A DNA stretch of 64,000 nt from an uncultured Fimbriimonadales bacterium. Its GTDB lineage: Bacteria > Armatimonadota > Fimbriimonadia > Fimbriimonadales > GBS-DC. Below the pieces are notes generated by a model. The model made no database searches and was not told the origin of the DNA. It saw nothing but the letters and a program-made list of their open reading frames with translations. The stretch is taken from positions 695-64,694 of the forward strand of contig CALKLF010000005.1 of NCBI GenBank assembly GCA_937992175.1, written 5' to 3'. A program made the position numbers and the translations under genes. Below, one piece after another: positions 6,363 through 39,438 of the stretch (position 1 is the first letter of the stretch; each line of letters starts with the position of its first letter).

Positions 6363-6363
6363 G

Positions 6364-9002: not shown

Positions 9003-9019
9003 AGGAGGTCCGTACAATC

Positions 9020-11299: not shown

Positions 11300-14200
11300 A
11301 TGCTTATGGAATCGAGCAACGGAAGAGGAGGTTCGAACGCAGTGATACGACGATGGCAGCTGATACTGGCGGGGCTTTTGCTTAGTTTGGCGGGTCATGC
11401 GCAGGGCGGCGATGCGTCGCAGTCGCCCCTGCAGGATCGTCCCAGCCGTAATATCTTGCCGAACGCGCGGGTGCGGGAGATCCCGCCCCAGAACTACAGG
11501 GTTGCGCCGTCACGCGCACCCCAAGATACCTCGAATGTGCGCTGGCGCAAGAACGGGCTGTTTGACCCCAAACAGTTCCATCAGCAACTCCAGCAGCGTC
11601 AGCAGCGCACGCGCGCGGTTCGGTGGGACACCGACATCACCAACGCCGCGACGGATGAGATGCATCCTGTTTACAATCCGGGCGCGTCTAAAATGTATTT
11701 CGCCAGCAACGCGGCCGGCGTCGGCGCGGACGGACGGCTGATTAACCCCACCCCGCGCTATCGTATCTGGCGCGGTGATGTGGACGAAGGGTCGCAGCTC
11801 TATGTCGGCAACCTGACGAATTTGATCCCCATCACGGGCGATACCCCCGATGAGCAGTTCGGCAGCCAGATTCAGCCCTCCCTTAACACGGCGGCGAACA
11901 TCATCGTCTACGCGAACCGCAGCGCAGCCGGCAGCTACAACATCGTCGTGCGCAACCTCAGCACGGGACAGCGCGTCGTATTGACCTCCGACAACAACGG
12001 CGTCACGCAGAACCTCCGCCCCACGCTTAGCCCCGGCGGCAACCTGGTGATCTTCTCCTCGAACCGTTTGCTCTCTGGCGAGACGGAAGCCGACCGCCGC
12101 TATCGGCTCTATGTGGCGCGCGCCGACGGGCGCCCCTTCGAAGACGGAACCTTCTTCCGACGTGTCACCTTTCCCGCGCCAGGCGAAAATGATGTAGAAC
12201 CTGCCTGGTCGCCTGATGGGAATCGCGTCGCCTTCGCGCGGATCGCCGCCGACGGCAGCAGCTACATCTATATGCTCGATTTCAATACGCTGACGGTTGT
12301 GCAGTGGACGAATTTCGTGGACGCCAGCAACAACAAGCCGCGCGATCGTCAGCCTGCATGGACGCGCATCGGCAATACGCCAGTATTAATCTTTGCCTCT
12401 ACCCGAAAATCGGGAACTCCGCATCAGCTCGGGCAACCCTCAGATCGGGTCGATGTCACCGGCAATATCTACGATATTTATCGGATGAACGCCGAGTTGC
12501 CCGAGCCGCTGAGCGGTTCCGTGCTTTCTCTTACCGCAGATCCCAGTAGCGCGTCGCTGGCGCGCCCTGATGTGCCAGGCGTGAGTTTCTTCGTTCCCGC
12601 TGCGGGCGCGAAGTATCCCACGGGCGCCATCGCAGAGCGCAATCGTATCGCTTATCATTCCACCCGAACGCAGGGCGCAGAGTCGCCCGGTCCAGGCATT
12701 CACGACCTGTGGGAGACCCGCGCCTTTGACCAGACCCCGCCTGTGATGGAAATCCTGCCCATCGTCAGCCCGAAAGAGTCGTTCCCAGGCGATACAGTGA
12801 CGATTAAGGTGCGCGCCGTCGACCTCCAGAGCGGCGTGAACTTTGTGCGGGTGCAGTTCAAAGACCCCGACAGCGCGGAACAGGACGCCGAAGGGTTGGA
12901 ACATCGCCTCTATCAACTGTTCCAGTTCGATATCTTCTTCACGAACCGAATCTTGGTGGATCAGGGGCAGGCATATGTACCGCTCTTCGTGGAGGTAGGA
13001 CATCAGGCGATTCATCCGGAGACCTATGAGTATAAGGAGCCGTACAGTCTGGCGCGACTGGGCTTCGACGGCAGTCTGGACGACACCCTGCTGCTGCAGC
13101 CCGAGCTGGACGACAATGGCAATCCTACCGACTGGTATGTCGGCACTTGGCGCACGCCCGATGTTCCAAGCGACTTCTACCTCGATGTGATTGTGCGCGA
13201 TAACGCGGGCAACGAGTTTATCTACGATAATGTCTCTGGCTTCACTACCCAGCAGTTCACAGGGGCGCATAACATCTTGCTCGTGTCGGACTACATGGGC
13301 GGTCAGATTTTCGTGCAGAACCGCGTGGCGGCGATTGGCAACTCCATCACCCGCCCGACTTGGCAGCCTGTGGAGAGCTACTGGACAGATAACCCGACGG
13401 GTAAGCCGCCGTTCGATATCACCCAACCTCCAAGCGGCAGCGGGCTGATTATTCACGGCGACGGTGCAATTCCGCATCCGAACCTGCCGCCTGGCTTCTT
13501 TATTCGCTCCGATACTTTGGGCGAGAACACGACCTATGGCAATCGCTATAATATTTGGCGCGTGCAGTGCCGCAACCCGATTACTCCATCCGTGCTGGCG
13601 GGCTACCTGCCGCGCACGGAACGCGAGCCGACCGACCTGACGGGCGGTTTCCGCGAGAAACTCCATGCAACTCGTATCGTGGTCTGGGGCAGCCCCTACA
13701 GCGGAAATGTGTGGGCGGGTCCGGGGCATGTTCTGGACCCGGAAGTGCAGGCGCTTATCCGCAGCTTCCTGCAAAGCAGCGGACGCATGGTGTTCAGCGG
13801 GCAGGATATTGCCTGGGCACTGACCCTGCGCGGCGCAGTGGCGAACCAGTTCATGATCGACATCCTGCGCGTCGCATTTGACAGCGACTCGGCAGATGAT
13901 GTGTTTTTGACCCCCTATGACGGTCTGCGACATCAACTGGAAGGCGTTGCGCCCCCGAGCGGCGAGGATCCGAACCCCATTGCCAGCAATCCTGGAGGAA
14001 TTGGCATCTGGATTCGATTTGAAGGCAACACGGTCCGTGTTGATTCGCCTGCGGAGTTGCGATTGTCGCATCCCGCCGCCTACTTAGTGCTTCCTAACGC
14101 GGATCTGTTCGATGTGATTACCCCGATAACTGGAGGAACAGGACCTCTATATACCGATGCCGCGTGGAACCAGGTCTGGCTGGACACCGTGAATGTGAAC

Positions 14201-16849
14201 GAGAATGCGCGCCCCGTCTATCGCTACACGCGCCCGCGCAGCCCGGAGGTTGGCGGAACGCTTATAGGTACTTCCGATAGGGCAGGCTCGTATTACGCCG
14301 ACGCCGCGACCCACTCGAAAGTGGCGTTCCTCTCTTTCGGCTTGGAAGGTGTTAACTCAACTTACAATGACGGTCCGACAATCGGTGGACAGGGAACCCT
14401 CTGGTGCCGTTCCTACCGCAATAAGATACTGCATAACGCTTTCGGCTGGATGACGCACAGTGTGCTGGAGGGGCAGGTACGCCAGTACGACCCCGATACG
14501 CGCACTTTCACCCCGCTGCCGCGTGTGCTGGTGCGCGTGATTGGCATCGCGCCGATCAGCATCGCTGGAGTGAACGCGGGCTACGCCATCACCGACTCCA
14601 ACGGACTGTACCGCATCGTCGGACTGGAAGCGGGCGTCTATCTGGTCGATGCAGAACGCCCCGGCTTCAAGACCCAGCACCCTGAGACGATTACGCTCGT
14701 GGCGGATGCCGACCCGAATCCGGGCGTTATCAACCTGATTATGCTCGCCACGCCGCCCGGGCAGATTAGCGGGCGCGTCATCGATATCAATAATCAGCCC
14801 GTGCGTGGCGCCGTCATCCGTGCGACCAATACCGTGGATCCTGAACTGACCGTCGAGGTGTTCAGCGACCCCGACGGAACCTTCTTGATGCCGCGCGTGC
14901 CAGTCGGAAGCTGGGATGTAACGGTCGTCAGCCTCGCGTTCGGCGGCTACGCCCTGCCACCCATCCAGCCCACGCCCGACGGCGTCTACCGCAATGTGCA
15001 GGTACAGGCTGGAGAGACCACGAATGTTGGCGACTTCGTGCTAGAGCCTGAGCCGGGCACCGTAACGGGGACCGTGACAGATGTGAACACAGGGCAGCCA
15101 ATCGCCAACGCGCGTGTCACGGCGGTTGCAGGCACAAACACCCGCGCCGATGTGACCACCGACGCGAACGGACAATACACCTTCACTGTGCCCGCGGGCG
15201 AGTATGTGGTTACCGCCGTTGCACCCGGCTACGCGCCTGAGAGCCAGACGCTGAATGTGCCTGCGAACCAGACCACCACACTCAACTTCCAGCTGGCGCT
15301 GCTGCCGCCCGGCTCCGCTTCGGGCAAGATTACCCGACGCTTCGGCGGCGCACCTGAACCCGATGTGACGGTTGAATTGCGCTTCGGCACGGTGGTGGTT
15401 CAAACAGCGACAACCGACGCCAACGGCAACTACAGCTTCCCCAATGTGCCCCCCGGCGAGTATGTGGTTGTGCCCACCAAGACGGGGTTCACCTTTATCC
15501 CCAATCAGCGCACGATTACGGTGAATCCGAACCAGAACACCGTTATCGGCGAGTTCAAGTCGGAGCCGCTGCGCACCTTCTTCAAGGGACGCTTCCTGGT
15601 TTCCGCGCCGTATGACTACACGCAGGATGTGAAAGATCTGCTCGATGTGCCCGCGAGCGCGACCTTCCGCTTCTTCAGCTGGAATCCCGCGCAGTCGCGT
15701 TATGTGTTCTATCCGAACGCGCCGGCGAACCGCTTCGAGCTCGGACGCGGCTATTTCATCGAGACTTCGGTGGATCTACCCCTGACCACGCAGGGGACGC
15801 CTGCCAACACAAGTCAGCCGTTCCAGAGTCCGCTGCAGGCGGGCTGGACCATGATTGGCAATCCGTTCACTTTCGATGTGGACTGGAGCGCGGTGCAGGT
15901 GATTGACCCCGACACGAACTTGCCCGTCTCGCTGTCGACAGCGGTTGGCAAGGGCATCGTGGCGAACGCGCTGTGGGGCTACTCGTTCGGCGCGTACACG
16001 GCGACCACACGCATGAAAATCTGGGAAGGCTACTGGGTGTACGCCTACCGCAATACGACGCTGATTATCCCGCCGACGGCGCAAGCAGCGAGTGCGCCGA
16101 GCCGCAGCGCGAGCGCGAACGCAGGCGGCTGGCGGCTGACGCTAGAAGCGGAGTCGGGCGACCTGCGCGACCGCGCCTATGTGGGCGTCTCGCGCGCGGC
16201 GACGCCGGGCTATGACCGCGAGCATGACCTGCTCAAACCGCCCCCTGTCGGCTCGGACTATGTGCATATCAGCCTGCCGCGCCTCACCTGGGGCGAGCAG
16301 AGCGGCGTCTATGGCGTGGACATCCAGCCTGCAATCCGCAGCGCGAACTGGGAGTTCATCGTGGAGACCAGTCAGCCGAATCGGGAGGTCACCCTGCGCT
16401 GGCCCGACGCACAGCAACTGCCGCGCTCGGCGAACCTCGTGCTGATCAATCTCGACACAGGCGAGCGGCGCTACCTGCGCACCACAGGCGCGTACACCTT
16501 CCGCACGGGCGTAAGCGGCGTGAGCCGATTCCGCATCGAAATGACCTCCAGCGGCGGATTGCTGCGTATCCAGCAGGTGCAGGTGAACACTGGACGCGGC
16601 AATCAGCACACCATCGCGTTCCAGCTGACAGGAGATGCGACGGTGCAGGTGAATATTCTCTCCGGCGGCAGGGTGGTGCGCCAGCTGCTCCATCAGGCGA
16701 CGCGCAGCGGCGTGCAACAAGCCACCTGGGACGGGCGCGACCAGAGCGGCGTCGCGTTGCCGCCCGGCGCATACACGATTGAAATTCGAGCCGTGAGCGA
16801 GGATGGTCAGGTCGCGCGTGCGACCGCGCCGCTCATCCTCACGCGCTGA
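11300..16849 (+). CDS. Giant secreted multidomain protein: signal peptide, TolB-like PD40 beta-propeller, unassigned ~650-aa centre, 4x CarboxypepD_reg-like domains, shared C-terminal module ending in a FlgD-Ig-like domain
   Basis: The internal ATG at 11300 follows GGAG. Signal peptide WQLILAGLLLSLAGHAQG. PD40 blades EPAWSPDGNRVAFAR and RPTLSPGGNLVIFSSNR. CarboxypepD_reg repeats, e.g. VTGTVTDVNTGQPIANARVTA...DANGQYTFTVPAGEYVV. C-terminus ATWDGRDQSGVALPPGAYTIEIRA...APLILTR*. Confidence 0.85.
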   Translation: MLMESSNGRGGSNAVIRRWQLILAGLLLSLAGHAQGGDASQSPLQDRPSRNILPNARVREIPPQNYRVAPSRAPQDTSNVRWRKNGLFDPKQFHQQLQQRQQRTRAVRWDTDITNAATDEMHPVYNPGASKMYFASNAAGVGADGRLINPTPRYRIWRGDVDEGSQLYVGNLTNLIPITGDTPDEQFGSQIQPSLNTAANIIVYANRSAAGSYNIVVRNLSTGQRVVLTSDNNGVTQNLRPTLSPGGNLVIFSSNRLLSGETEADRRYRLYVARADGRPFEDGTFFRRVTFPAPGENDVEPAWSPDGNRVAFARIAADGSSYIYMLDFNTLTVVQWTNFVDASNNKPRDRQPAWTRIGNTPVLIFASTRKSGTPHQLGQPSDRVDVTGNIYDIYRMNAELPEPLSGSVLSLTADPSSASLARPDVPGVSFFVPAAGAKYPTGAIAERNRIAYHSTRTQGAESPGPGIHDLWETRAFDQTPPVMEILPIVSPKESFPGDTVTIKVRAVDLQSGVNFVRVQFKDPDSAEQDAEGLEHRLYQLFQFDIFFTNRILVDQGQAYVPLFVEVGHQAIHPETYEYKEPYSLARLGFDGSLDDTLLLQPELDDNGNPTDWYVGTWRTPDVPSDFYLDVIVRDNAGNEFIYDNVSGFTTQQFTGAHNILLVSDYMGGQIFVQNRVAAIGNSITRPTWQPVESYWTDNPTGKPPFDITQPPSGSGLIIHGDGAIPHPNLPPGFFIRSDTLGENTTYGNRYNIWRVQCRNPITPSVLAGYLPRTEREPTDLTGGFREKLHATRIVVWGSPYSGNVWAGPGHVLDPEVQALIRSFLQSSGRMVFSGQDIAWALTLRGAVANQFMIDILRVAFDSDSADDVFLTPYDGLRHQLEGVAPPSGEDPNPIASNPGGIGIWIRFEGNTVRVDSPAELRLSHPAAYLVLPNADLFDVITPITGGTGPLYTDAAWNQVWLDTVNVNENARPVYRYTRPRSPEVGGTLIGTSDRAGSYYADAATHSKVAFLSFGLEGVNSTYNDGPTIGGQGTLWCRSYRNKILHNAFGWMTHSVLEGQVRQYDPDTRTFTPLPRVLVRVIGIAPISIAGVNAGYAITDSNGLYRIVGLEAGVYLVDAERPGFKTQHPETITLVADADPNPGVINLIMLATPPGQISGRVIDINNQPVRGAVIRATNTVDPELTVEVFSDPDGTFLMPRVPVGSWDVTVVSLAFGGYALPPIQPTPDGVYRNVQVQAGETTNVGDFVLEPEPGTVTGTVTDVNTGQPIANARVTAVAGTNTRADVTTDANGQYTFTVPAGEYVVTAVAPGYAPESQTLNVPANQTTTLNFQLALLPPGSASGKITRRFGGAPEPDVTVELRFGTVVVQTATTDANGNYSFPNVPPGEYVVVPTKTGFTFIPNQRTITVNPNQNTVIGEFKSEPLRTFFKGRFLVSAPYDYTQDVKDLLDVPASATFRFFSWNPAQSRYVFYPNAPANRFELGRGYFIETSVDLPLTTQGTPANTSQPFQSPLQAGWTMIGNPFTFDVDWSAVQVIDPDTNLPVSLSTAVGKGIVANALWGYSFGAYTATTRMKIWEGYWVYAYRNTTLIIPPTAQAASAPSRSASANAGGWRLTLEAESGDLRDRAYVGVSRAATPGYDREHDLLKPPPVGSDYVHISLPRLTWGEQSGVYGVDIQPAIRSANWEFIVETSQPNREVTLRWPDAQQLPRSANLVLINLDTGERRYLRTTGAYTFRTGVSGVSRFRIEMTSSGGLLRIQQVQVNTGRGNQHTIAFQLTGDATVQVNILSGGRVVRQLLHQATRSGVQQATWDGRDQSGVALPPGAYTIEIRAVSEDGQVARATAPLILTR

Positions 16850-16879
16850 GACGCAGACTATGAAGGAGGAGCAATCAGG

Positions 16880-18658
16880 GTGAAAACACGGATGAGACGA
16901 ACTTGGGCGACGCGCACAGCGTATCTTGGTGTGATGAGTATGCTCGCGGTGGGGCTGCTCTTCCCGTCGGGCGCTGCGCGCGCCTACGCGCAGCTGGTGC
17001 AACTGCCGCGTATCGCGGTATTGGACTTCGAGAACAAGAGCGGGTACGGCGGCGCAAGCATCGCCCGCGCTGCAACCGACGCCGTCGCGGGCGAATACCA
17101 AAAAACAGGCAAGTATGAGGTGCTGGCGCGGGGCGAGGTGGAGCAACAGCTGAAAGATCTCGACCTCGCACCCCCACTCACAAAAACAGGTTTCCTTCGC
17201 CTCGGACGCGCACTGCAAGCCGAATCGATTATCACGGGCGAAGTGAGCGCCGTGACCTTTGTGGGCAGCCCGAAACAAGCACAGGTGGTGCTCACGGTGC
17301 GGGTCATCGATATCGCGTCGGGTGAACCCATCAACGGCGCAGTCGCCACAGGCTACAGTAATCGCCGCCCCGGCTACACAGGCGACGACGACACGCTCGT
17401 GCAGGAAGCCATCCGCAACGCCGCGTTCGAAGCCGTGCGCACCATCCAGAACTACACCATCCCCGAAGCGACCATCCTGACCACGCGCGCAGGCAAAGAG
17501 GTGCTGCTTAATCGCGGCATTCGCGGCGGATTGCAACCTGGCATGGAGATGATTGTCGTGCGCCGCGGCGAGGAAGTGGGGCGCATTCGCGTCACCCAAG
17601 TCTCCGATAGCGACGCGGTGGGCGAGATTATCGACTTCGGGCGCGGTATCCAGAGCGAAGACCGCGCGCGCGCAATCTATCGAGTGCCCACGGTGCAGGT
17701 GCGGGCAGGCAAAGTCAGAACGGAGCCATCGCGGCGCCCTGGTGAAGGGAACAAGCTCCTGCGCGCTCTGGGACCCGTCCTGATTATCGGGTTAATCGCT
17801 TTTGGCGTGGCGCGCGCCTCGTCGGGCGGCAACACGCCGGTGCAAACCGTGCTGGCGGAAGCAGGTGCGGACGGCAACTTCGAACCCTATGTGCGCATCT
17901 CGTGGAAAACCACTCTGTTCGCAAAAAGCGCACCCGACACGATTCAGTGGCAGATCTATCGCTCGGACTTTATTGGCACGGACGGCAACGGCAACCTGCT
18001 GCCTGTCGGCGTGACTCCAGGCAACCAAAATTTCTTCATCGATACCACAGTGCCGCGCACCTTCAGCTACGCCAGCCTGCTGCGTGAAGGCAGTGAGGAC
18101 TTGGAACTTGAAGAGCTGGAAGGTGCGCCTGGCGTTGCACCCGGACGCTCCTACACTTATCAAATCGCGTTGGTGTATCGCGAACGCATCGAGGCGGAAG
18201 GTGAAACGCTCATTCTGTTCAAGCTCTCCGACCGCGTGCGTTCGGGGCAGGTGACCGTGCTGCAGCCTGTGCAGTTGCTGACACCCGTCCAGCGCAGCGA
18301 AGATGTAGACCCCAAAGATGTGCGCTTCAGCTGGCTGGCAGCGGAAGGCGCGAACGCCTATCGCGTGGAGGTCTCGACCGATCCGACCTTCCGCGACCGA
18401 AGCCGTACCTTTGTTTCGAACGAGATTCTGTCAACCGCCGTAGGCGGCTCTCCAGTGTCTACAGACCGTATCAATCTGGAAACTGCCCTGCTCAATCGGC
18501 TGGGGCTGTTGGGGCAGCGCGTGACGCTCTACTGGCGCGTGGGTGCGCGCAACTTGGGTGATAACCCCGGACCAATCCCAGACCCCCAGAGCAAGCTGCG
18601 CTATGTGTGGAGCCGACCGTTCGAGTTCACCACGCAGGAGCTGCCGCCTGCTCCGTAG
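16880..18658 (+). CDS. Envelope protein: signal peptide, CsgG/LpoB-like alpha/beta domain, small beta domain, hydrophobic helix, two FN3/Ig-like domains
   Basis: GTG start 10 nt after GAAGGAGG. PRIAVLDFENKSGYGG...AGEYQKTGKYEVLARGEVEQQLKDLDL...AESIITGEVSAV fits the CsgG-family pattern. Hydrophobic helix LLRALGPVLIIGLIAFGVARA. Confidence 0.6.
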   Translation: MKTRMRRTWATRTAYLGVMSMLAVGLLFPSGAARAYAQLVQLPRIAVLDFENKSGYGGASIARAATDAVAGEYQKTGKYEVLARGEVEQQLKDLDLAPPLTKTGFLRLGRALQAESIITGEVSAVTFVGSPKQAQVVLTVRVIDIASGEPINGAVATGYSNRRPGYTGDDDTLVQEAIRNAAFEAVRTIQNYTIPEATILTTRAGKEVLLNRGIRGGLQPGMEMIVVRRGEEVGRIRVTQVSDSDAVGEIIDFGRGIQSEDRARAIYRVPTVQVRAGKVRTEPSRRPGEGNKLLRALGPVLIIGLIAFGVARASSGGNTPVQTVLAEAGADGNFEPYVRISWKTTLFAKSAPDTIQWQIYRSDFIGTDGNGNLLPVGVTPGNQNFFIDTTVPRTFSYASLLREGSEDLELEELEGAPGVAPGRSYTYQIALVYRERIEAEGETLILFKLSDRVRSGQVTVLQPVQLLTPVQRSEDVDPKDVRFSWLAAEGANAYRVEVSTDPTFRDRSRTFVSNEILSTAVGGSPVSTDRINLETALLNRLGLLGQRVTLYWRVGARNLGDNPGPIPDPQSKLRYVWSRPFEFTTQELPPAP

Positions 18659-18667
18659 GCTTACGCG

Positions 18668-18690
18668 GGGCGCAGGGGAAACCTGCGCCC
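18668..18690 (+). terminator. Stem-loop just after the stop of the 16880 gene (weak terminator or processing site)
   Basis: gggcgcagg-ggaaa-cctgcgccc. It is followed at a distance by tctttt. Confidence 0.35.
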
Positions 18691-18735
18691 TGTTCAAGCG
18701 TCTTTTCAACAGGCAATTATCGGGAGGAGATACCG

Positions 18736-21648
18736 ATGAAACGGATGTGGCGATGGCTGGTTGGAATAGTCATTGGAGTGCACTGCGCACTCGCGCAGAC
18801 GCTCACGCCCGACGATGTCGTGCCGGGTGAGATGTTGATGCGTCTCAAGCCGGGACGCACCATCGATACCGCGCGTGCAATTGCTAATAGCATCGACGCG
18901 GAGGTGCGTCCGATTGCGGTGCGTGATACCTATCTGTTGCGTCTGCGGGAGCAGGCAACGCCTTTGACCCTGCTCCAGAAGGTGCAGGATACTGTGAAAA
19001 CCCTTCAAGAGCACGCAGATGTCCTCTATATCGAACCGCACTACATCTTACAATATCATGACATCCCTAACGATCCACTGTTCTCGGAGCAGTGGGCGCT
19101 GCAGATGATGAAACTGCCCGCCGCGTGGGACATCGAAAAGGGCGCAACCGGGATTCGTGTTGCCTTCATCGACGATAACTTCCAGCGCTCACATCCTGAC
19201 CTTGCGGGGTTGTTCGACCCGCTTTCGCGCAACTTCGCTGCAGACACTCCCAACGACAATATCGACCCTGAAGGTCCAGGGTTTTCGCACGGCACCTCCA
19301 CAGTCGGCGTGGCAGCGGCTGTGACCAACAACGGCATCGGCATCGCGGGGCTCATCTGGGAGAATGTCAAAATTGTGGGGTTGAAAGTGACCCAGCGTCC
19401 GCTCGGTCCGCTGTTCACGCAGAATGTCCTGGAAGCCTACCAGCACGTGATTGACAACGCGGCGCAGATTCATGTGCTGAACATGAGTTATGGCGGCTAC
19501 TTCTTCTCGCCAATTGCGAACGATTTGATTCAGGAGATTTACCGTCGCGGCGTTGTACCCGTCGCTTCAGCAGGGAACGGCAACACCGACATTCCTTCCT
19601 ATCCTGCCAGTTATGACAATGTGGTGCGCGTCTCGGCAGTTGGACGCACGGGCGCGAAGGCGTCCTATTCCGATTATGGCAACATCGACCTCGCTGCGCC
19701 CGGCGGCGATCAGGCGAGCAGCTACTTCGATGGCGTGATTACCACCGCCTCGACCAGCCAGCTGTACGACTATGTGCAGGGGACTTCCTATTCGAGTCCC
19801 TATGTTGCTGCAGCGGTGGCGCTGCTGCTCTCTGCAGGTGCGCAGCGTCATGGACTGAACACGGTGGAGCCTGAGGCGGTTGTGGCGCTGAAAGAAACCG
19901 CCGATTCGCGCGGGCGTCCCGTGCCTGACCCGGAACTCGGCTACGGAATCATCGATTTGGATCAGGCGCTACGCGGCGTGGGCGGCGTCGGGATTGCGTT
20001 CATCGCGCCTGTCTCGGGCACGACCGTCGACACGCGCCAGGTGCGTGTTAATGTGGTTGTGCGCCGCGTGCTGAACAATAATCCGGCGAACATCTTGAAT
20101 GTGCGCCTGAACGATGACCCGCTGCCGCGCAGTCTCTGGGAGCCGACCGCCGTGGTGGATGTACCCCGAAAGACAATCACGCTGGACTTCGTCGTGACGC
20201 TTCCAGGCGAAGGGCGGCACACCATCTCGGTTGAGGCAATTGGGCAGGATGGCGTCACGGGCAGCCGCTCCACGCGCGTCGTCGCGAAAGCTTATGTGCA
20301 GAACGCGGGGTTGGCGATGTTCTCCACGCCCTACGATATCCAGCTCACTCCGGAGGAAGTGTTTGGCAACGATGTGATTCTGGCGCGCTATCTGCCCGAG
20401 GAGGGAACATACGCCCGCTACTCGGCGGTGTCGCAGGATCCCCGCGCGAGTTTCAATCCGCCTGGACTGGCAGTGCGTCCCGATGGCTCGAACACCCCAA
20501 CGCCGCCGCGCGGCGTGGGCTACTTCCTGCGCACCACTTCGCCCGCGTTCATTTTGGGGAATCAAGATGTGGACACCAATACCGCCTACCTGATCCCCCT
20601 CCAGGAAGGCTGGAACATGATTGGCAATCCGTTTCCCTTCAATGTGCCGTGGGCGGCGTGTGAGGTGGAAATCTTCAACGCAGGCGGGCAGACCCAGCGC
20701 ATCAGCCTGCAGGAAGCAGCCGACCGCGACTATATCCGACTACAGATTTATCGCTATGTCCCGCTCACTGGCGAATACACTTGGCGCACCGCGCCGCTGG
20801 GCGAGCTGCTTGCTTGGCAAGCGCACTGGGTGAAAGCCCTCAAACCCTGCACGCTCGTTGTGCCGCCCGTCGGCTCCGTGCGCAGTCGCGCCGATCAGTC
20901 GCCGCGCGTCGAAGCGAAGCAGTCGGACGGTTGGCTCATTCGCTTGATTGCCCGCAGCGGCGACCGCGAGGATGCCAATAACCTCATCGGCGTGACATCG
21001 CTTGCAAGCGACGAATTCGGACGCGAGGATGTGGAGAAACCGCCTGTATTCAAATCGTATGTCGCGGTGAACATCCTCGAACCGCGCACCCGCAGTGCGC
21101 TTGCGCACGACCTGCGACGCAACGCGAAACGGGCGCAGCGATGGGAAATTGAAGTTGCCACGGATCAGCCCGACGCAGAAACGACGCTGCAGTGGACTCA
21201 GGAACTCCCCGTGCCTAAAGGCACACGACTCACCCTGATTGACCAGGCGACGGGACAACGCGTCTCCATGCTGCAGCAAAGCTCCTATCGGTTCCGCACG
21301 GACGAAACCAGTCGCCGTCGTTTCGTGATTGAGGCGCAGCCCGCGCGCACGGGACGCCTGCAGGTGACGAATATCGCGGTGACGCAAACGCGCGGCAATC
21401 AGTACACCATCCAGTATATGCTCAACAGTGAGGCGTCCGTGCAAGTGTTGGTTCAGGATGCAACGGGGAAGACCATCGCGCGTCTACAGAATGGCACTCG
21501 CTCGGCGGGCGTCAGCACAGCGACCTGGAACGGACGCACCGATACGGGCATCGCCGTGCCTCCCGGAGCTTACCAGCTTCAGATTGTCGCGACGGGCGAT
21601 GAAGGCGAGGCAGTGCGCGTGGTTCGACCGCTGGTGGTCGCCCGCTAA
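18736..21648 (+). CDS. Secreted subtilisin-family (S8) serine peptidase with an I9-like propeptide and the shared C-terminal module
   Basis: ATG 18736 follows GGGAGGAG. Signal peptide MKRMWRWLVGIVIGVHCALA. Catalytic regions VAFIDDN (Asp), FSHGTSTVGV (His), GTSYSSPYVAAAVALL (Ser). C-terminus ATWNGRTDTGIAVPPGAYQLQIVA...RPLVVAR*. Confidence 0.9.
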   Translation: MKRMWRWLVGIVIGVHCALAQTLTPDDVVPGEMLMRLKPGRTIDTARAIANSIDAEVRPIAVRDTYLLRLREQATPLTLLQKVQDTVKTLQEHADVLYIEPHYILQYHDIPNDPLFSEQWALQMMKLPAAWDIEKGATGIRVAFIDDNFQRSHPDLAGLFDPLSRNFAADTPNDNIDPEGPGFSHGTSTVGVAAAVTNNGIGIAGLIWENVKIVGLKVTQRPLGPLFTQNVLEAYQHVIDNAAQIHVLNMSYGGYFFSPIANDLIQEIYRRGVVPVASAGNGNTDIPSYPASYDNVVRVSAVGRTGAKASYSDYGNIDLAAPGGDQASSYFDGVITTASTSQLYDYVQGTSYSSPYVAAAVALLLSAGAQRHGLNTVEPEAVVALKETADSRGRPVPDPELGYGIIDLDQALRGVGGVGIAFIAPVSGTTVDTRQVRVNVVVRRVLNNNPANILNVRLNDDPLPRSLWEPTAVVDVPRKTITLDFVVTLPGEGRHTISVEAIGQDGVTGSRSTRVVAKAYVQNAGLAMFSTPYDIQLTPEEVFGNDVILARYLPEEGTYARYSAVSQDPRASFNPPGLAVRPDGSNTPTPPRGVGYFLRTTSPAFILGNQDVDTNTAYLIPLQEGWNMIGNPFPFNVPWAACEVEIFNAGGQTQRISLQEAADRDYIRLQIYRYVPLTGEYTWRTAPLGELLAWQAHWVKALKPCTLVVPPVGSVRSRADQSPRVEAKQSDGWLIRLIARSGDREDANNLIGVTSLASDEFGREDVEKPPVFKSYVAVNILEPRTRSALAHDLRRNAKRAQRWEIEVATDQPDAETTLQWTQELPVPKGTRLTLIDQATGQRVSMLQQSSYRFRTDETSRRRFVIEAQPARTGRLQVTNIAVTQTRGNQYTIQYMLNSEASVQVLVQDATGKTIARLQNGTRSAGVSTATWNGRTDTGIAVPPGAYQLQIVATGDEGEAVRVVRPLVVAR

Positions 21649-21669
21649 CGGGAAGGAGGCGAACGGATT

Positions 21670-24363
21670 ATGAAACGATGGGTTTTGACATTACTGAGCA
21701 ACAGTATCCTGGTGGCGTCGCTCTGGGCGCAGGGGTCCTATCAGCCGGGACCTCTCGAGCCGTGTGGATGTCCCGATAACCAGAACCCTGTGAGCAGCGA
21801 CTACGGCGTTATCTTCGTCAGCAACGGCGTGCTGGGCGCGACGCTGGGCTTGAGCGGAACCGTGACCTGGTGGACGGGATGCTTCCCTATTGAGAACACC
21901 ACCTGTACGACGCGCCCTGCGGAGGGCAGTATCCAGCTCGGTACGGCAAGCGGCAGCAGTTTGCTGAACGACTCGGACATTGCCATGACCGCGGGCTACC
22001 CGTGGGCGGTTTATCCTGCAGGCATTTACATCACGATGCGCTCCGTGCGGGAAAACCAAACCCAGACTTTTGTCTGGGGACGTCAGGGGGGGCCTAATGT
22101 AACCTTTTCGCAAGCATGGCCTGGCGCCAGTGGCTACTACATTCGCCGCATCTGGAATGTAGAAGGATGGGATACTGACCTGCGCATCGACCTCATTCAG
22201 TCGGTGGCGCGGATTAGCCTGCGTGTGCGCAACAGCGGCGACACTGCAGCCTCGCTTGCGCTACGCCTGGCGTCGGATGTAGAGACCGGCGTCGAGGCAG
22301 GTTTTGTCCAGAATGGCGCGTCGCGACCGCCCTATGTCTATGTGCAGGGACAACGCCCAATCAAGATCGATTCCGACCTGCGCGGCTTGCAGATCCCCAA
22401 CGCCATCGAGTTCTATCTCGGGCGTGGTAACCTGCCTGGCTCGTCGCGCTACATGCTGCGACCCGTCAAAGGATTCGAAGACCAGACGCCCATCGACCGC
22501 CTGGTCATCGGGGACTGGTTCTTCGTACAGGGCACTACAATCTGGGAGCCCGTGTTATTCCCCGACTCGTTTATCGACGATGTGGCAATCAACCTGTTCG
22601 TCAACGCGCGCAACTTCGCGCCAGGGCAGACTCGCGAGTTTGTGTTTTATGTGACTCTGACTCCTGTGGATTTGGATGTTCAGCCTCCGATTGCGCTGGG
22701 TGTCGAGGCGCTGCCCGTTATCGAACCCGACCAGAGCAATCTGGGTCAGCTGGCGCAGGGTGGGCAGTTCCAGGTGTTTGCGAATGTAACCAATCAGTAT
22801 TTCATCGTCGGGCGCGAGATTGACCTGAATAATATCGTGGTCGACATCTCACTGCCGTCGGGATTGTCGCTCGCGCCGGGGCAGAGTCGTACTCGCACCA
22901 TCTCACGCCTTGCGCCGGGGCAAACCGCGCCTGTGAGCTGGGTTGTGGTTGCTGATCCCACCACCGTAGGGTTTACTACGATTCGGGTCTCCGTACAAGC
23001 CCCACCTGCGCCCACGAAATCGGTGACACGCACAATCCTCGTCTCCGCAACCGCGAACCGGAAGCTGGAATCGGGCTTTCAGATTGTCTCGATTCCGTTT
23101 ACGATGACGGGCACGCTGGAAGAGGTGTTGAACTTGCCCGTGGCGTATCAGGCGAAACGCTGGAACCCACAACGGGAACTGTACGAGACTATCGATACGA
23201 TTCAGCCGGGGCAGGGGTTCTGGCTCTTCTTGCCAGGCGACGCCATCATCGCGAACTACGATACGAGTGTCCTGCGGTTCCCTACTGGCGTGTTTGATGC
23301 CAGCCTGCCTGTGCCACTCAAGAAGGGCTGGAACCAGATTGGCAACCCCTATCCCTACCCGCTGGTGCTAGGGCAGGTGGTGGTCGTCGGCTCCAGTGAC
23401 CCGTCGTCCAGTCTAAGCTTCTTTGAGGCGGCGCAGCGGGGCGTGATTCGCGGCGTGCTGTATTACTGGGATGAGTTCACTAACGAGTATAAGTTCACTT
23501 CGGATCCCAACACGCCGCTGCTGCCCCATCGCGGCTACTGGATTAAGGTCAGTGAGGATGTGGAGTTCGTCTATCCTCCCGTCTTTCTGCCGGGCACAGG
23601 GTTTGGCGGTATCATTATCCGTTCAGCCAGTGAACCTGTGAACCGCCCCAACGACTGGCGATTGCAAATTGTCGCCCACACGAATCGCGGGGTGGATACG
23701 CAGAACTATATCGGCATTAGCAGTGGACGCTCGGCAGGCGATATCGAGGAGCCGCCCACGCCGCTGCCCGAACGCGCGGTGAACCTGACGATTCTCAAGT
23801 CGGGTACGGGAACGCCCCTAATGCAGGAAATCCGACCGCTGGCGAACCGACAACAGTTCGACCTGGTGGTGGAAGCCGCGCCAGGCGAGGAGGTCACACT
23901 GACCTTCCCGAACCTGAACACCGTGCCGCAGGGCTTCCGCCTCCGCCTGAACGACCTGAACACGGGACGCTCGATTGATCTGCGCACGACGCCCGAATAT
24001 CGGTTCGTCTCGACGGGACGCACGCGCCTGCAACTGACCGTGGAGCGCGCGGCGCGCACGGGCGCGTTGATTACCAGTGTGAATGTGGGCGCCGCGGGGC
24101 GCGGCGCGAACAGCGTCTCCATCTCCTATGTGCTGGCGGATAATGCCCAGACGAGCATCCAGATTCTGGGCTCCGACGGACGCACGGTTGCGAATCTGCA
24201 TCGCGGGCGTGCGGCGACGCGCGGCGTGAACACGGTTGCGTGGAACCTGCGCGACGACCAGGGACGCGCGGTACCGCCCGGAACCTATCAGGTGCAGGTG
24301 GAGGCGCGCACCGAAGACGGTCAGGTTGCTCGCGCGACGCGACCGCTCGTGCTGACGCGCTAA
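21670..24363 (+). CDS. Secreted protein of unknown function (novel N-terminal ~450 aa, CARDB/NEW3-like Ig domain) carrying the shared C-terminal module
   Basis: GAAGGAGG lies upstream. Signal peptide MKRWVLTLLSNSILVASLWAQG. GWNQIGNPYPYP...GYWIKV...VAWNLRDDQGRAVPPGTYQVQVEA...RPLVLTR*. Confidence 0.8.
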   Translation: MKRWVLTLLSNSILVASLWAQGSYQPGPLEPCGCPDNQNPVSSDYGVIFVSNGVLGATLGLSGTVTWWTGCFPIENTTCTTRPAEGSIQLGTASGSSLLNDSDIAMTAGYPWAVYPAGIYITMRSVRENQTQTFVWGRQGGPNVTFSQAWPGASGYYIRRIWNVEGWDTDLRIDLIQSVARISLRVRNSGDTAASLALRLASDVETGVEAGFVQNGASRPPYVYVQGQRPIKIDSDLRGLQIPNAIEFYLGRGNLPGSSRYMLRPVKGFEDQTPIDRLVIGDWFFVQGTTIWEPVLFPDSFIDDVAINLFVNARNFAPGQTREFVFYVTLTPVDLDVQPPIALGVEALPVIEPDQSNLGQLAQGGQFQVFANVTNQYFIVGREIDLNNIVVDISLPSGLSLAPGQSRTRTISRLAPGQTAPVSWVVVADPTTVGFTTIRVSVQAPPAPTKSVTRTILVSATANRKLESGFQIVSIPFTMTGTLEEVLNLPVAYQAKRWNPQRELYETIDTIQPGQGFWLFLPGDAIIANYDTSVLRFPTGVFDASLPVPLKKGWNQIGNPYPYPLVLGQVVVVGSSDPSSSLSFFEAAQRGVIRGVLYYWDEFTNEYKFTSDPNTPLLPHRGYWIKVSEDVEFVYPPVFLPGTGFGGIIIRSASEPVNRPNDWRLQIVAHTNRGVDTQNYIGISSGRSAGDIEEPPTPLPERAVNLTILKSGTGTPLMQEIRPLANRQQFDLVVEAAPGEEVTLTFPNLNTVPQGFRLRLNDLNTGRSIDLRTTPEYRFVSTGRTRLQLTVERAARTGALITSVNVGAAGRGANSVSISYVLADNAQTSIQILGSDGRTVANLHRGRAATRGVNTVAWNLRDDQGRAVPPGTYQVQVEARTEDGQVARATRPLVLTR

Positions 24364-24371
24364 ATTGGCAT

Positions 24372-24396
24372 GGGCTGGAGCCGCGCGCTCCAGCCC
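24372..24396 (+). terminator. Perfect stem-loop 9 nt after the stop of the 21670 gene
   Basis: gggctggagc-cgcgc-gctccagccc. No clear U-tract follows. Confidence 0.35.
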
Positions 24397-24415
24397 TTCT
24401 GTGAAGGAGGTAAAG

Positions 24416-25111
24416 GTGAAAAGTATCGGCGTACTAATCATCGCTTTACTTTTGATGAGGGGCTTCGCGGCGGATGAGGCGCGCGAGCTGGTGCTGTTCC
24501 CCTTCGGACAGGGAGCCGCCGTGCAGCCCGTGGAGGAGTTTAATGTCGAGGTAGAGGCTCTGAACGCGCTCTACGCCCAGCTGAAGGACCTTCCAAGCTT
24601 GTATGTGCTGCGCTATCGGGAGACGAACCCGTCCATCCGCCGCGCGATTGACGAGAACCGTATCCGCCGCGACCGCCTGACCCCGCCGTTCAACGAGCGC
24701 GAGGCGGACGGCACATGGCGCGCGGCGCGCGTGGGTGCGCTGCTCGGCGTCGACCTCGCGTTCGCCGGGCGCATCGAGGAGTCCAGCTACGACCCGAACT
24801 TGCGCGAGGCGATTGTGACCATCAGCGGCGACCTAATCGATGTGCAATCAGGCGAGGTGCTGGTCTCCGTTGCGGAAACCGGGCGCGGAAGGCTCGGCAC
24901 CGATCAGGACGATCCGAATGTCGCCCGCATCGCGGCGGTTGCGCAGGCGGCGGAGAAAATCGGCGCCGCCATTCGCACGCACCTCGCGCCGCCCGCCGAG
25001 CAACCGACCACCGTCGAGGAGCGAAAACAGCCTGACCGCAAGCGCGAGCGGGCGGCGGTCACGCTCTTCGTGCTGATTCTCGGCGCGGTGCTGGGCGGCG
25101 CCCAATTCTAA
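24416..25111 (+). CDS. Periplasmic CsgG/LpoB-like-fold protein with an N-terminal signal and a C-terminal tail-anchor helix
   Basis: The in-frame GTG at 24416 lies 5 nt after GAAGGAGG. (M)KSIGVLIIALLLMRGFA; ELVLFPFGQG...LGVDLAFAGRIEESSY...ISGDLIDVQSGEVL. The extreme C-terminus is AAVTLFVLILGAVLGGAQF*. Confidence 0.55.
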   Translation: MKSIGVLIIALLLMRGFAADEARELVLFPFGQGAAVQPVEEFNVEVEALNALYAQLKDLPSLYVLRYRETNPSIRRAIDENRIRRDRLTPPFNEREADGTWRAARVGALLGVDLAFAGRIEESSYDPNLREAIVTISGDLIDVQSGEVLVSVAETGRGRLGTDQDDPNVARIAAVAQAAEKIGAAIRTHLAPPAEQPTTVEERKQPDRKRERAAVTLFVLILGAVLGGAQF

Positions 25112-25115
25112 CTGA

Positions 25116-27056
25116 ATGCGCACGGGCAGTAAAATCCATCGATACTGGAGCGGGGCAGGGGGGTTGTGGCTCCTCTGCCTTTGCGCTTGCTGGGCAAACG
25201 GTGCGATTCGGCTCACCGCCTATCCGACCGCGGCAGTCGCCGATAGCGCGTCGCAGATTCTCATCACCGCCGAAGTGCGCACCGCGCAGGGCAAACCCGC
25301 GCCTGACGGAACCCAGATCGCCTTCAACACAACGCTCGGCGTGTTTCGGGAGTCTATCGTCGCGACCGAGAGCGGCGTCGCACGCGCAACGCTCATCGCC
25401 AGTCAGCTGCCTGGAACCGCGACCATCACGGCGACCGCCATCGGGCAGGGCGTCGTGGGCGAAGTGCAGGTGCTGTTCGTGGCGACTCAAGAGGAGCTGC
25501 GCAGCGCAACCGACTATGTGCAGGTGCTCGGCGAGTATCTTGCCTATGCCAACGAACAGCGCGTGATTGCTGCCTCTGGCAAGGAGCGCACCGCCAGCGT
25601 GCGATTCAGCTTCACACTGATTGAGGCAGATGACCTGCAACTGGAAGTCGACAGCCTGCGTGTCAAAGCCCGCAACGCCCGCTTGAAGTACGGCTCGGAG
25701 CAGCACGAGTTCGCGGAGCTGAGCTACGAGCTGCGCTCCTCGCAGGGGTTTGGGGTGCGCCAGCGCGAGAACCGCTGGGAAGTTGTACGAATCCGCTCTG
25801 GCGCGATTGAGCCGTTTGACGCCGTTGCCCCGCCTGAACTGTTCCAATTCGCCGACATTTCCGAATCGGAGCTGGTTATCAAAGCGGCGCAAATCTGGTT
25901 CTATCCGGGCGAACGCATCCAGTTCCATCGGGCGGAGTTCTATGTGGGCGAGGTGAGGTCGCTGAGCCTGCCGCTCTATTCGCAGAGCCTCTGGAGCGGC
26001 GGGGTGGGGAGCGACGCGCTGATTGGGGTGCAGAACGGGCAGGTGTATCTGGATGTGCCGTATTATTACGCGCTGACCCCGACGCAGATTGGGGCGTTGC
26101 GCCTGCGCACCGCGCAGGTCGGCGGGCGCACGATGGGCGCCGCGCGCGGAATGTTTCTGGATCTGGAGCATGAGTATCGTGTGGAACTGGGTACGGGGAT
26201 GTTCAGCATAACGGGTCTCGCGCGCGACGACTGGGGCGTGAATTGGCGACACCAGCAGCCGCTCTCGCCGACCACGCGCTTCACCATGTGGCTCGACTCA
26301 CCTGCCCATCGAGGCGTCTACGGCTCCGCGCAGCTCGCTCATCAGGCGCGGGGCTTCTCGACGGGCTTGACCCTCGCGGGCAGCACGCACTGGCAGGGCG
26401 TACGCGCCAGCAGCCTGCGTTCCGATTTGTTCATTGAAACCACCCCGCGCCGCGTATCTGACCTGCCCGTGCGCCAGAGCTTTTCGCTGAGTCTCACATC
26501 GAGCCGCACTCAAAACACGCTTGGCATTCAAAACCGCGAAGGGATCGGCGTGCGAGTGCGCTGGAACCTGATCCCGCAGTCGCTTGGACGCTCCACGACG
26601 CTCACAGGGGGCATGACCGTCGGGCGGTTCGTGGGCAACCTTCCTAATGCGGGCTGGAGCATTACGGGTACAGTGGGGATTACGCACGCGCTGGGGAACA
26701 GCGGCGCGCTCAGCCTGAACTATGACTACACGCAGGACGCCCTCGCCGCGAACCTGCTGGGCAGACATCGCCTCTCAGGGAGCCTCGGCTGGAGCCTGAG
26801 CGACCGCTTTTACCTCACGGGCTACATGAGCCGCGCACTGGATGCCGATTCTGTGAGTTATGTCGGGGATTTCTCGTGGCGAATCAGCCCCCTCTGGCGA
26901 ATAGGCGTCGGGTATACTTTGCAGTCGTACAATCAGTACGACTTTCGCGATCAGACCTTGACAATCGCATACCGCATCGGCTACCGTGAGGTGGCGCTGA
27001 CATGGTCGTCTTTCACCCGGCGATGGAGCTTCGACCTGCTCACAGCGTTTTATTAA
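25116..27056 (+). CDS. Outer-membrane beta-barrel protein with an N-terminal Big_1-type Ig domain and an LptD/OstA-like middle region
   Basis: Signal peptide GLWLLCLCACWANG. Ig domain: SQILITAEVRTAQGKPAPDGTQIAFNTTLGVF...GTATITATA. The C-terminal half is alternating-pattern beta strands ending ...WSFDLLTAFY* (aromatic terminus). FHRAEFYVGEVRSLSLPLYSQSL recalls the LptD jellyroll-barrel junction; this comparison is from memory. Confidence 0.5.
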   Translation: MRTGSKIHRYWSGAGGLWLLCLCACWANGAIRLTAYPTAAVADSASQILITAEVRTAQGKPAPDGTQIAFNTTLGVFRESIVATESGVARATLIASQLPGTATITATAIGQGVVGEVQVLFVATQEELRSATDYVQVLGEYLAYANEQRVIAASGKERTASVRFSFTLIEADDLQLEVDSLRVKARNARLKYGSEQHEFAELSYELRSSQGFGVRQRENRWEVVRIRSGAIEPFDAVAPPELFQFADISESELVIKAAQIWFYPGERIQFHRAEFYVGEVRSLSLPLYSQSLWSGGVGSDALIGVQNGQVYLDVPYYYALTPTQIGALRLRTAQVGGRTMGAARGMFLDLEHEYRVELGTGMFSITGLARDDWGVNWRHQQPLSPTTRFTMWLDSPAHRGVYGSAQLAHQARGFSTGLTLAGSTHWQGVRASSLRSDLFIETTPRRVSDLPVRQSFSLSLTSSRTQNTLGIQNREGIGVRVRWNLIPQSLGRSTTLTGGMTVGRFVGNLPNAGWSITGTVGITHALGNSGALSLNYDYTQDALAANLLGRHRLSGSLGWSLSDRFYLTGYMSRALDADSVSYVGDFSWRISPLWRIGVGYTLQSYNQYDFRDQTLTIAYRIGYREVALTWSSFTRRWSFDLLTAFY

Positions 27057-27076: not shown

Positions 27077-27571
27077 ATGCAAGAGGTCATGCAGTTCAGC
27101 GTCGCCGCGCTGACGCAGCTCGCGCGTTTTTGCACGGCGGGCGCGGGCGTCGGCGTCTCGGCATTTGAACTGGTGTCATTCGATCGTGCTTTGAGGCAGG
27201 CAGGTTTCGCCGATTACAATCTGTTGCGTGTGTCCAGCATCCTGCCTGCGGGAGTGCAATTACGCCCCACTGTCGAGGCTTCAAAGGGGAGTCTTTTGCC
27301 CATTGCCTACGGCGCGTTCAGCTCCGACGAAGACGGACGCGCCATCGCCGCCGCCGTATCGATGGCGTTTCCTGCGGAGCCGAATGCCGTTGGCGTCATT
27401 ATGGAAGCCGCGGGCTACATGACCGAGCGCGAAGCCCGCGAGCTGGTTGCGGCGATGGCGGAAGAGGCGATGGAAGACCGAAACCTCCCGATAGCGCGCT
27501 TGGAGGTGGTCTCTGTCGAGGCGCAGGTGGATCTTTACACGACGGTCTTTGCGGGCGTCGCGCTGTGGTAG
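27077..27571 (+). CDS. pdaD: Pyruvoyl-dependent arginine decarboxylase (PdaD family)
   Basis: The internal ATG at 27077 follows GGAGG. ...SAFELVSFDRALRQAGFADYNLLRVSSILP... carries the Ser-Ser self-cleavage site typical of PvlArgDC. ~164 aa. Confidence 0.7.
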   Translation: MQEVMQFSVAALTQLARFCTAGAGVGVSAFELVSFDRALRQAGFADYNLLRVSSILPAGVQLRPTVEASKGSLLPIAYGAFSSDEDGRAIAAAVSMAFPAEPNAVGVIMEAAGYMTEREARELVAAMAEEAMEDRNLPIARLEVVSVEAQVDLYTTVFAGVALW

Positions 27572-37019: not shown

Positions 37020-37040
37020 ACACGGACAGGATTGTCCGTG

Positions 37041-38522: not shown

Positions 38523-38569
38523 AGAGGATTAATAGGGTAGGAGCAGGGTCGCCCTGCCCCTCCCCCTGC

Positions 38570-39424: not shown

Positions 39425-39438
39425 TTGCCTCCCTCCAA

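Follow-up and report, generated by a model that had tools for sequence, protein, structure and literature searches.

The six-gene block and its layout

The window analysed here is a stretch of 64,000 nucleotides (nt) of contig CALKLF010000005.1 from an uncultured Fimbriimonadales bacterium; it is chromosomal DNA of ~61% G+C, and the nearest protein relatives of its genes are found in Fimbriimonadales (Armatimonadota) metagenome-assembled genomes, several of which are labelled as hot-spring bins. Hot springs and soils harbour many Armatimonadota; the phylum is poorly cultured, and its envelope is almost unstudied. Six genes of the window, named g1 to g6 in their order (Table 1), encode three large proteins that end in the same tail (g1, g3 and g4), two alpha/beta proteins (g2 and g5) and a large outer-membrane barrel protein (g6). 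This gene set is conserved across the phylum, and it is tentatively read as an apparatus dedicated to exporting the tail-bearing proteins across the outer membrane or anchoring them there, an assignment that falls somewhat short of probable.

Re-called open reading frames agree with an earlier note on this DNA, made from the sequence alone, that described six co-directional genes on the + strand with gaps of 30, 77, 21, 52 and 4 nt from g1 to g6. The beginning of the block is placed differently, in that g1 most likely starts at GTG 11342, which lies 10 nt downstream of GGAAGAGGAGG, rather than at ATG 11300, because both the signal peptide and the orthologous proteins start at this point. Of the strong ribosome-binding sites that had been claimed for all six genes, five are present as GGAGG-type sites, but g6 has no Shine-Dalgarno sequence of its own and starts 4 nt past the stop of g5, which suggests translational coupling. 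A consensus scan of the intergenic gaps of the block found no promoter- or terminator-like site, the counts not being above those of shuffles, so that the layout, as far as the sequence tells, looks like one operon. The two intergenic hairpins indeed lack a U tract, but their stems are strong and GC-rich rather than weak, as previously stated; the one in the g2-g3 gap, which was not scored as a terminator in the consensus scan, may act in attenuation or stabilise the mRNA. Comparison of the six proteins with Pfam, NCBIfam and PADLOC returned no named system, and a defence system was rejected, the PADLOC match being to a generic subtilase only.

Table 1. Features of the six-gene block and its flanks (aa, amino acids; bp, base pairs; CTD, C-terminal domain; A and B, tail domains described in the text).
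Feature	Position (nt)	Strand	Description
g1	11342-16849	+	1835 aa; accessory tail-bearing protein
g1 A-B-CTD tail	~15587-16849	+	
g2	16880-18658	+	592 aa; core component
Hairpin in g2-g3 gap	18665-18692	+	GC-rich 12-bp stem, without U tract
g3	18736-21648	+	970 aa; accessory tail-bearing subtilase
g3 A-B-CTD tail	~20308-21648	+	
g4	21670-24363	+	897 aa; core tail-bearing protein
g4 A-B-CTD tail	~23062-24363	+	
Hairpin in g4-g5 gap	24372-24396	+	GC-rich 10-bp stem, without U tract
g5	24416-25111	+	231 aa; accessory, paralogue of g2 N-terminal domain
g6	25116-27056	+	646 aa; core outer-membrane protein
rpsA-like ribosomal protein S1 and coaE	8801-11247	+	upstream flank; four S1 domains (Pfam)
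coaE	10642-11247	+	dephospho-CoA kinase (Pfam)
Pyruvoyl-dependent arginine decarboxylase	27077-27571	+	downstream flank (Pfam)

Products of the six genes

The domain calls of the earlier note are borne out by Pfam matches, by the structural models of g2 and g6 and by the catalytic motifs of g3. In g1, a signal peptide precedes the Pfam-assigned PD40 (TolB-type) propeller repeats, a middle region for which no relative was found in Pfam or the Protein Data Bank (PDB), four CarboxypepD_reg domains and, at the C-terminus, FlgD_ig, while g3 carries a signal peptide, a propeptide-like N-terminus, a Peptidase_S8 domain in which the subtilase motifs D147/H185/N281/S351 are all retained, and again a C-terminal FlgD_ig domain. 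In g4, a signal peptide is followed by an N-terminal region of ~350 aa with no PDB or Pfam relative, a weak NEW3/CARDB-like immunoglobulin (Ig) domain (~386-442) and the tail with FlgD_ig, the tail being the sole family assignment of this protein. Its earlier designation as a third cargo is correct in that it bears the tail but falls short of the evidence, since g4 is present in nearly every version of the cluster and its orthologues are conserved at full length across the phylum (24-35% identity).

The tail common to g1, g3 and g4, likewise recognised earlier, measures ~400 aa, and the three proteins are 29-33% identical over their 350-500 C-terminal residues (E 1e-31 to 1e-52); the window holds no additional copy. 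Alignment with its relatives resolves the tail into a domain A (~170 aa; motifs GxGYW and GWNxIGNP), a domain B (~150 aa; motifs WxxxL and PP) and a third, CTD-like part, a beta-sandwich whose terminus nearly always reads ...xTR. The tails of the window match FlgD_ig of Pfam with E 3e-15 to 7e-10, and a joint tail profile reaches both the CTD of PorU (E 7.8e-7) and the Ig domains of FlgD (~1e-13). Tail-bearing genes are also found outside the cluster in Armatimonadota contigs (loci L044-L046, L048 and L050), as is expected for the clients of a central machine.

The AlphaFold2 model of g6 (pLDDT 80.8, pTM 0.71) begins with a signal peptide and a Big_1 Ig domain at 30-122 (Big_1/Invasin_D3 in Pfam), continues with an all-beta, jellyroll-like domain at ~135-290, and closes with a barrel of ~22-24 strands (DSSP on the model) that ends in ...TAFY, with an aromatic final residue. 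The previous description of this protein as an Ig domain plus a barrel holds, but the protein is not anonymous, because its modelled arrangement of Ig domain, jellyroll-like domain and large barrel is LptD-like. In Foldseek searches against the PDB, the top 12 matches were full-length LptD structures (E 3e-16 to 1e-12), followed by the ushers FimD/PapC (E 1e-7 to 1e-5) and then by MtrB, with low template modelling (TM) scores to the fold matches (~0.3 for LptD); LptD entries that consist of the barrel only scored far lower (~1e-6), which indicates that the N-terminal beta domain supplies much of the match. When family profiles were compared with the PDB, LptD (7omm) was the only match that was neither Ig nor repeat (E 0.11-0.12), with an alignment in register with the g6 family over the jellyroll-barrel junction, and six of 70 diverse family members gave weak matches to LptD_N, LptC or OstA_2 (best E 0.006-0.03). 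Across 70-113 members, only P315 and G361 are invariant, of which the proline, located in the first long barrel strand, recalls the lateral-gate prolines of LptD.

However, the LptD barrel family PF04453 was matched by none of the 70 members, even at E up to 1. In LptD, the conserved cysteine pairs C31/C173/C726/C727 link the N-terminal domain to the barrel (PMC4353691), whereas mature g6 has no cysteine and 75 of 113 family members have none past the signal peptide. Because the sequence evidence is marginal and both PF04453 and the LptD cysteines are missing, g6 is kept out of the LptD family and is termed LptD-like in its modelled architecture. A search of the g6 family profile against 1.84 billion representatives gave 702 matches at E<=1e-30, including Big_1-repeat giants, with ~110 of the 150 listed being full-length; since the top 150 were filled by the family and these giants, the search could not reveal remote LptD relatives. 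A look-up of cluster members among distant g6 relatives yielded one member labelled Armatimonadota. Two other candidates were discarded: WD40 matches of a jellyroll-only profile in the PDB were sums of short repeats, each stretch being insignificant alone, and an inverse autotransporter, as suggested by Big_1, was rejected for its reversed domain order and the missing barrel signature of that family. The intimin match of g6 spans the Ig domain only, and family scans, including those of the 70 members, gave no POTRA or IAT_beta match.

For g2 and g5, which had been called CsgG/LpoB-like, profile searches, hhalign and Foldseek agree on a CsgG/LpoB/TolB-N-like fold. In g2, the signal peptide is followed by an alpha/beta domain (44-191) and a small beta domain (196-282), and a basic stretch leads to a hydrophobic helix (292-315; 294-314 in the model, pLDDT 81), past which lie two fibronectin type III (FN3)-like domains and a Pro-rich end. 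Its match to CsgG in Pfam (PF03783) is sub-threshold, at 17.5 bits against a cutoff of 20.8, and some g2 orthologues carry a precomputed PF03783 match; the best Foldseek matches of the model are FlgT (1e-9) and the Vibrio LPHT ring, with the CsgG pre-pore at E 5e-6, and further matches include CT253, the PelC dodecamer (TM ~0.6), GNA1162, LpoB and Cj1090c. In the smaller g5, which matches neither PF03783 nor any other Pfam family, the signal peptide is followed by an alpha/beta domain of the PelC/LptE type, whose motif ENRxRRDRxxPPFN is invariant in the alignment, and then by a basic stretch that leads to the C-terminal hydrophobic helix (211-231). Its family profile matches the PelC dodecamer (5t11/5t10, E 2e-4), and g5 is homologous to the N-terminal domain of g2 (hhalign probability 91.5%, E 9e-7); the alpha/beta domains of the two proteins are paralogous and share the LptE/PelC/CsgG/FlgT fold. 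To our knowledge, wherever proteins of this fold have been characterised, they lie beneath an outer-membrane barrel or within it, as a ring or plug. The PqiC-like, LptE-like (including 7RXU), CsgG-like, PelC-like and FlgT proteins have been grouped as outer-membrane transport lipoproteins with a common alpha/beta core (JBC 2026, PMC13631591). The suggestion that the two folds of TolB are split across this locus is correct at the level of folds, but no evidence was found that gives the split a meaning.

Among the six products, a strongly hydrophobic internal or C-terminal segment is confined to g2 and g5, neither of which has a lipobox; g5 was accordingly rejected as a lipoprotein LptE orthologue, as it has no Cys or lipobox. 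In both proteins (283-320 in g2, 195-231 in g5), the basic cluster comes before the helix and not after it, and in g2 the FN3 domains come after the helix. As a result, an inner-membrane anchor would break the positive-inside rule and would leave the FN3 domains of g2 in the cytoplasm; as a speculation, the helix may be lodged in the outer membrane, inside the barrel or next to it. One g2 orthologue (L003:5074-6996) has its two FN3-like domains separated by a long low-complexity insert of (Gly-Thr)n.

The similarities of g6, g2 and g5 raise the main alternative, in which g6 is a divergent Armatimonadota LptD that inserts lipopolysaccharide (LPS), with g5 and/or g2 as an LptE-like plug or assembly factor, and the cluster serves housekeeping outer-membrane biogenesis; the tail proteins would then adjoin it as co-expressed envelope proteins, or be organised on or attached to LPS. 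This explanation is judged unlikely. The full-length LptD structures at the head of the fold matches, the 7omm profile match that keeps its register, the weak LptD_N, LptC and OstA_2 matches and the invariant proline all speak for it, as do the LptE-like proteins (e.g., 7RXU) within the fold group of g2 and g5 and the fixed position of the cluster beside the housekeeping genes rpsA-coaE. In addition, Armatimonadetes possess core LPS synthesis genes, and LptD/E reportedly could not be recognised by sequence in the diderm Firmicutes, namely Negativicutes and Halanaerobiales (PMC5007114). It is countered by the missing PF04453 match and cysteines, by a strand number of ~22-24 rather than 26, by the extra N-terminal Big_1 domain of g6 and by the non-lipoprotein nature of g5 and g2; among the annotated genes of the window, none of the lpt, lpx or kds type lies nearby, and the near-obligate adjacency of g4 is left unexplained. 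If the alternative were true, the cluster would provide a candidate LptD/LptE pair, of which no description was found for this phylum, and would bear on the building of LPS outer membranes outside Proteobacteria and on the diderm-monoderm debate.

Conservation and genomic context

The synteny scan, for which a g4 alignment was the query, covered a single genome of each GTDB species and returned ~45 Armatimonadota loci, in which the genes of the locus were located by local tblastn with domain-level queries; the counts are restricted to loci with sufficient flank. The cluster proved to be conserved across Armatimonadota, which was the test that the earlier note had proposed: of the 35 species-representative loci that have g4 and enough flank, 33 carry g6 3' of g4 in the same orientation, and g2 lies 5' of g4 in 31 of 32. 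In 18 loci, g6 immediately adjoins g4, and elsewhere g5 or another tail-bearing gene stands between them. The contigs of g6 homologues at 37% and 32% identity have an identical gene order, and the order remains constant across the phylum at 24-35% protein identity, with rpsA-coaE preceding the cluster in most Armatimonadota loci. Three layouts can be distinguished, namely a minimal one (rpsA-coaE-g2-g4-g6) in Fimbriimonadaceae, 'Chthonomonas sp. UBA' bins and Uphvl-Ar2, an intermediate one (g2-g3-g4-g5-g6), and a full one (g1-g2-g3-g4-(extra tail protein)-g5-g6), which is that of the window type and of Chthonomonadales; g1 orthologues occur in extended clusters only. The minimal cluster is g2-g4-g6, in which g2 and g6 are invariant and g4 is nearly so, and g1, g3 and g5 are accessory. 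Directly 3' of g6, 18 minimal or intermediate loci (L003:12009-13817; L013-L018, L020, L023-L026, L028, L029, L031, L032, L034 and L039) encode a conserved secreted protein of ~600 aa with no Pfam family, which is not found in this window or its close relatives and may be a further component that replaces g5 or the accessory genes.

A fortuitous clustering of envelope genes that share no function had been entertained before and is extremely unlikely, because the cluster is syntenic across the phylum at 24-35% identity. The flanking genes, being unrelated housekeeping genes, would fit such an accident; the order and orientation kept in dozens of species-level lineages, the recurrence of one tail module in three genes, the paralogy of g2 and g5 and the 4-nt spacing between g5 and g6 would not. 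Nor can the barrel be called a clear orthologue of a housekeeping outer-membrane protein with freely varying neighbours, which had also been raised, because its orthology to LptD is not clear and its neighbours are not freely variable.

Beyond the phylum, the same scan detected the tail in Cytophagales/Cyclobacteriaceae, Neomarinimicrobiota, Calditrichia, Eisenbacteria and WOR-3, with ~90% coverage and 21-28% identity. The tails of these Fibrobacteres-Chlorobi-Bacteroidetes (FCB) phyla are carried on unrelated N-terminal passengers and end in a genuine type A sorting domain of the type IX secretion system (T9SS), with four of five tested passing the TIGR04183 cutoff; the statement of the earlier note that the locus matches no known system understates this link. 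No g2 or g6 homologue was found near the FCB tail-bearing genes in the loci scanned. Instead, Cytophagales/Cyclobacteriaceae possess a conserved three-gene cassette (L056:910-8556, L071:5148-12467, L054, L072, L078 and others) composed of a small secreted Kre9_KNH Ig protein with a C-terminal hydrophobic helix after basic residues (8 loci), the tail-bearing giant and, downstream, a secreted caspase-like Peptidase_C14 protein of ~395 aa (11 loci). The Armatimonadota cluster and the cassette thus represent two distant groups in which the tail keeps company with a small, helix-anchored protein and with a protease; as far as could be found, this cassette has not been described.

With regard to the flanks, the arginine decarboxylase gene starts ~20 nt 3' of g6 in the same direction, with a GGAGG of its own, and may be co-transcribed with the block; this adjacency is kept in close relatives only. 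On the other side, the longest S1 open reading frame (8801-10642) overlaps the end of an amidohydrolase gene (7785-9002) by ~200 nt, and the true S1 start is probably later. Further upstream (5112-7761), two adjacent genes encode proteins of 416 and 465 aa with C-terminal FHA domains, the second having two, and with no domain assigned to their remaining parts. In a phosphate uptake cluster on the - strand (36051-40758), genes for two permeases and a PstS-like binding protein accompany that of a homologue of phosphate-selective porin O/P, which confirms that the organism has outer-membrane porins. Also on the - strand, genes for a DNA methylase (N6_N4_Mtase), a PGA_cap capsule-synthesis homologue, a GT4 glycosyltransferase and a methyltransferase lie next to each other (47252-51228) and may constitute a small surface-polymer locus.

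Proposed function and comparison with known systems

The cluster is a conserved and probably co-transcribed envelope module that combines a translocon-type barrel, alpha/beta proteins of the type that partners barrels and proteins with a sorting-type tail, from which we infer a secretion or display function. In the mechanism proposed for an export or anchoring apparatus, all six products would cross the inner membrane via Sec, and g2, joined by g5 in the extended versions, would assemble at the periplasmic face of g6. The tail would dock to the complex of g6 with g2/g5 through its last domain, which is homologous to T9SS CTDs and to the Ig domain of FlgD, and the client would be passed through the barrel or held at it. 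In this scheme, the role of constant client or subunit would fall to g4, with g1 and g3 as additional, lineage-specific clients. PorU, a CTD-bearing sortase, processes the tails in T9SS, and the active-looking S8 protease g3 may process the tail in a similar manner. The proposal builds on gene content, folds, tail homology and conserved synteny, while the physical interactions, the direction of transport and the exposure at the surface are deduced from folds, homology and gene order.

An export or anchoring apparatus is favoured because it makes use of all the facts, that is, the barrel, its alpha/beta partners, the sorting-type tail and the synteny. Going by its model, g6 would be of translocon type, and its nearest folds (LptD, FimD/PapC and MtrB) all pass or sheath macromolecules; the tail is modular, being attached to unrelated passengers both here and in the FCB phyla. 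The fold group of g2 and g5 consists of outer-membrane transport partners of barrels (PMC13631591). The 4-nt gap before g6, which has no Shine-Dalgarno sequence, and the operon-like arrangement of the block also speak for the apparatus. A homologue of LptD moves surface lipoproteins in Borrelia (bioRxiv 10.1101/2022.12.21.521298) and may serve, by analogy, as a precedent.

Several points weigh against this assignment. The contacts between the tail, g6 and g2/g5 are putative. Neither an S8 domain nor a propeller would fit in its folded state through a barrel of 22-24 strands, so that unfolded or domain-wise passage would be needed. The rpsA-coaE neighbourhood, the retention across the phylum and the apparent single locus per retrieved contig resemble a housekeeping set, and g2 and g5 have an unexplained hydrophobic helix and no lipobox. 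With the TIGR04183 (Por_Secre_tail) model, whose cutoff is 23 bits, g3 scores 14.8 bits, and no match was obtained for g1 or g4. Moreover, a variant locus on a 5.07-Mb contig (L085:543-12088) is missing g4 while keeping g2, g5 and g6; it encodes a g1-like protein of 2040 aa with tail domain A only, without B or the CTD, a g2-like protein of 717 aa with Ser/Thr/Gly-rich inserts, a g5-like protein of 283 aa and a g6-like protein of 695 aa. The barrel and the alpha/beta pair can therefore exist without g4.

Another explanation, which is distinctly unlikely, holds that the cluster builds a static surface structure, in which g4 is a subunit resembling that of a surface layer (S-layer) or sheath, with its tail plugged into or bound to the g6 barrel; g2/g5 would form a periplasmic collar, as FlgT does round the flagellar LP ring, and g1 and g3 would be enzymes on the same anchor. 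It accounts for g4 as the constant partner of g6 that has no enzyme domain, and the best folds of g2, FlgT and LPHT, are structural rings. The S-layer protein 7ptp and the outer-membrane protein SlpA (8ae1) also appear among the weak fold matches of the g6 and g2 models, and the CarboxypepD_reg repeats of g1 give a partial match to a model of an anammox S-layer glycoprotein. Nevertheless, a static structure would still require an export route for g4; the S-layer matches are weak and stem from generic beta-sandwich repeats, and g4 is missing in L085.

The export or anchoring apparatus and the LptD alternative are not mutually exclusive, because T9SS cargo is attached to (anionic) LPS and the Borrelia LptD homologue handles surface lipoproteins. 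A narrower version that combines them, in which a translocon of the LptD/LptE type was recruited in Armatimonadota, a diderm phylum of Terrabacteria, for protein export or anchoring via a T9SS-like tail, is somewhat unlikely. If this were true, it would constitute an undescribed pathway of protein secretion or surface attachment that joins the LPS translocon and type IX cargo sorting, which have been thought unrelated. An export or anchoring apparatus would mean, in general, that the operon defines how the phylum populates its surface, and that the tail is older than, or passes between, outer-membrane machineries of very different kinds. No description of the cluster was found in the literature on Armatimonadota with LptD, T9SS or secretion.

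Among the known systems, two-partner secretion and Omp85 differ in that g6 has no POTRA domains, and intimin/invasin differ in that Big_1 precedes the barrel in g6, opposite to the order in intimin. Chaperone-usher systems (FimD/PapC), the second-best fold class of g6, share a large barrel with periplasmic Ig-like domains and export Ig-sized domains one at a time; however, the six genes give no match to a PapD-like chaperone or pilin family, and no plug or C-terminal domains are evident. The PelC-PelB and CsgG systems resemble the cluster in the alpha/beta domain of g2/g5, which forms rings of 12 (PelC) or nine (CsgG) subunits at the inner face of the outer membrane, and PelC-PelB does so further in the use of a ring-type protein with a separate barrel. 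In contrast to these systems, g2 and g5 have neither a lipobox nor membrane hairpins of the CsgG type, g6 has no TPR, no pel genes and no csgA, B, E or F lie among the genes of the window, and the putative substrates encoded nearby are large folded proteins rather than a polysaccharide or an amyloid subunit.

The likeness to LptD-LptE lies in the jellyroll-like periplasmic beta domain modelled for g6 that is followed by a very large C-terminal barrel, in marginal sequence signals of the OstA clan, and in a small protein of the LptE/PelC/CsgG fold encoded right beside the barrel. On the other hand, g6 carries Big_1, has fewer strands and is without PF04453 and the cysteines, a hydrophobic helix takes the place of the lipid anchor in g2/g5, and the cluster is obligately tied to tail-bearing proteins, with no lpt gene near. 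The Borrelia LptD homologue similarly has an LptD-type barrel that serves the surface localisation of protein instead of LPS, although the clients here are not lipoproteins and Armatimonadota appear to make LPS.

In T9SS, PorU and PorZ are bound to the PorV and PorQ barrels, and cargo with a type B CTD has an adjacent PorP/SprF barrel. No T9SS is known from Armatimonadota, and none of its core components (PorK/L/M/N, Sov/SprA and PorV) is among the annotated genes of the window; the barrel of g6 is LptD-like and not PorV/FadL-like or SprA-like, and the CTDs of the window, besides falling below the TIGR04183 cutoff, are without the NYPNPFN-type motif of the N-terminal strand in the alignment. 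What the cluster has in common with T9SS is a C-terminal beta-sandwich domain of the sorting type that is homologous to the CTD of PorU, a complete A-B-CTD module that is also carried by bona fide T9SS cargo of FCB phyla, a tail-carrying protease, g3, that parallels PorU, and a barrel that is encoded beside its putative client.

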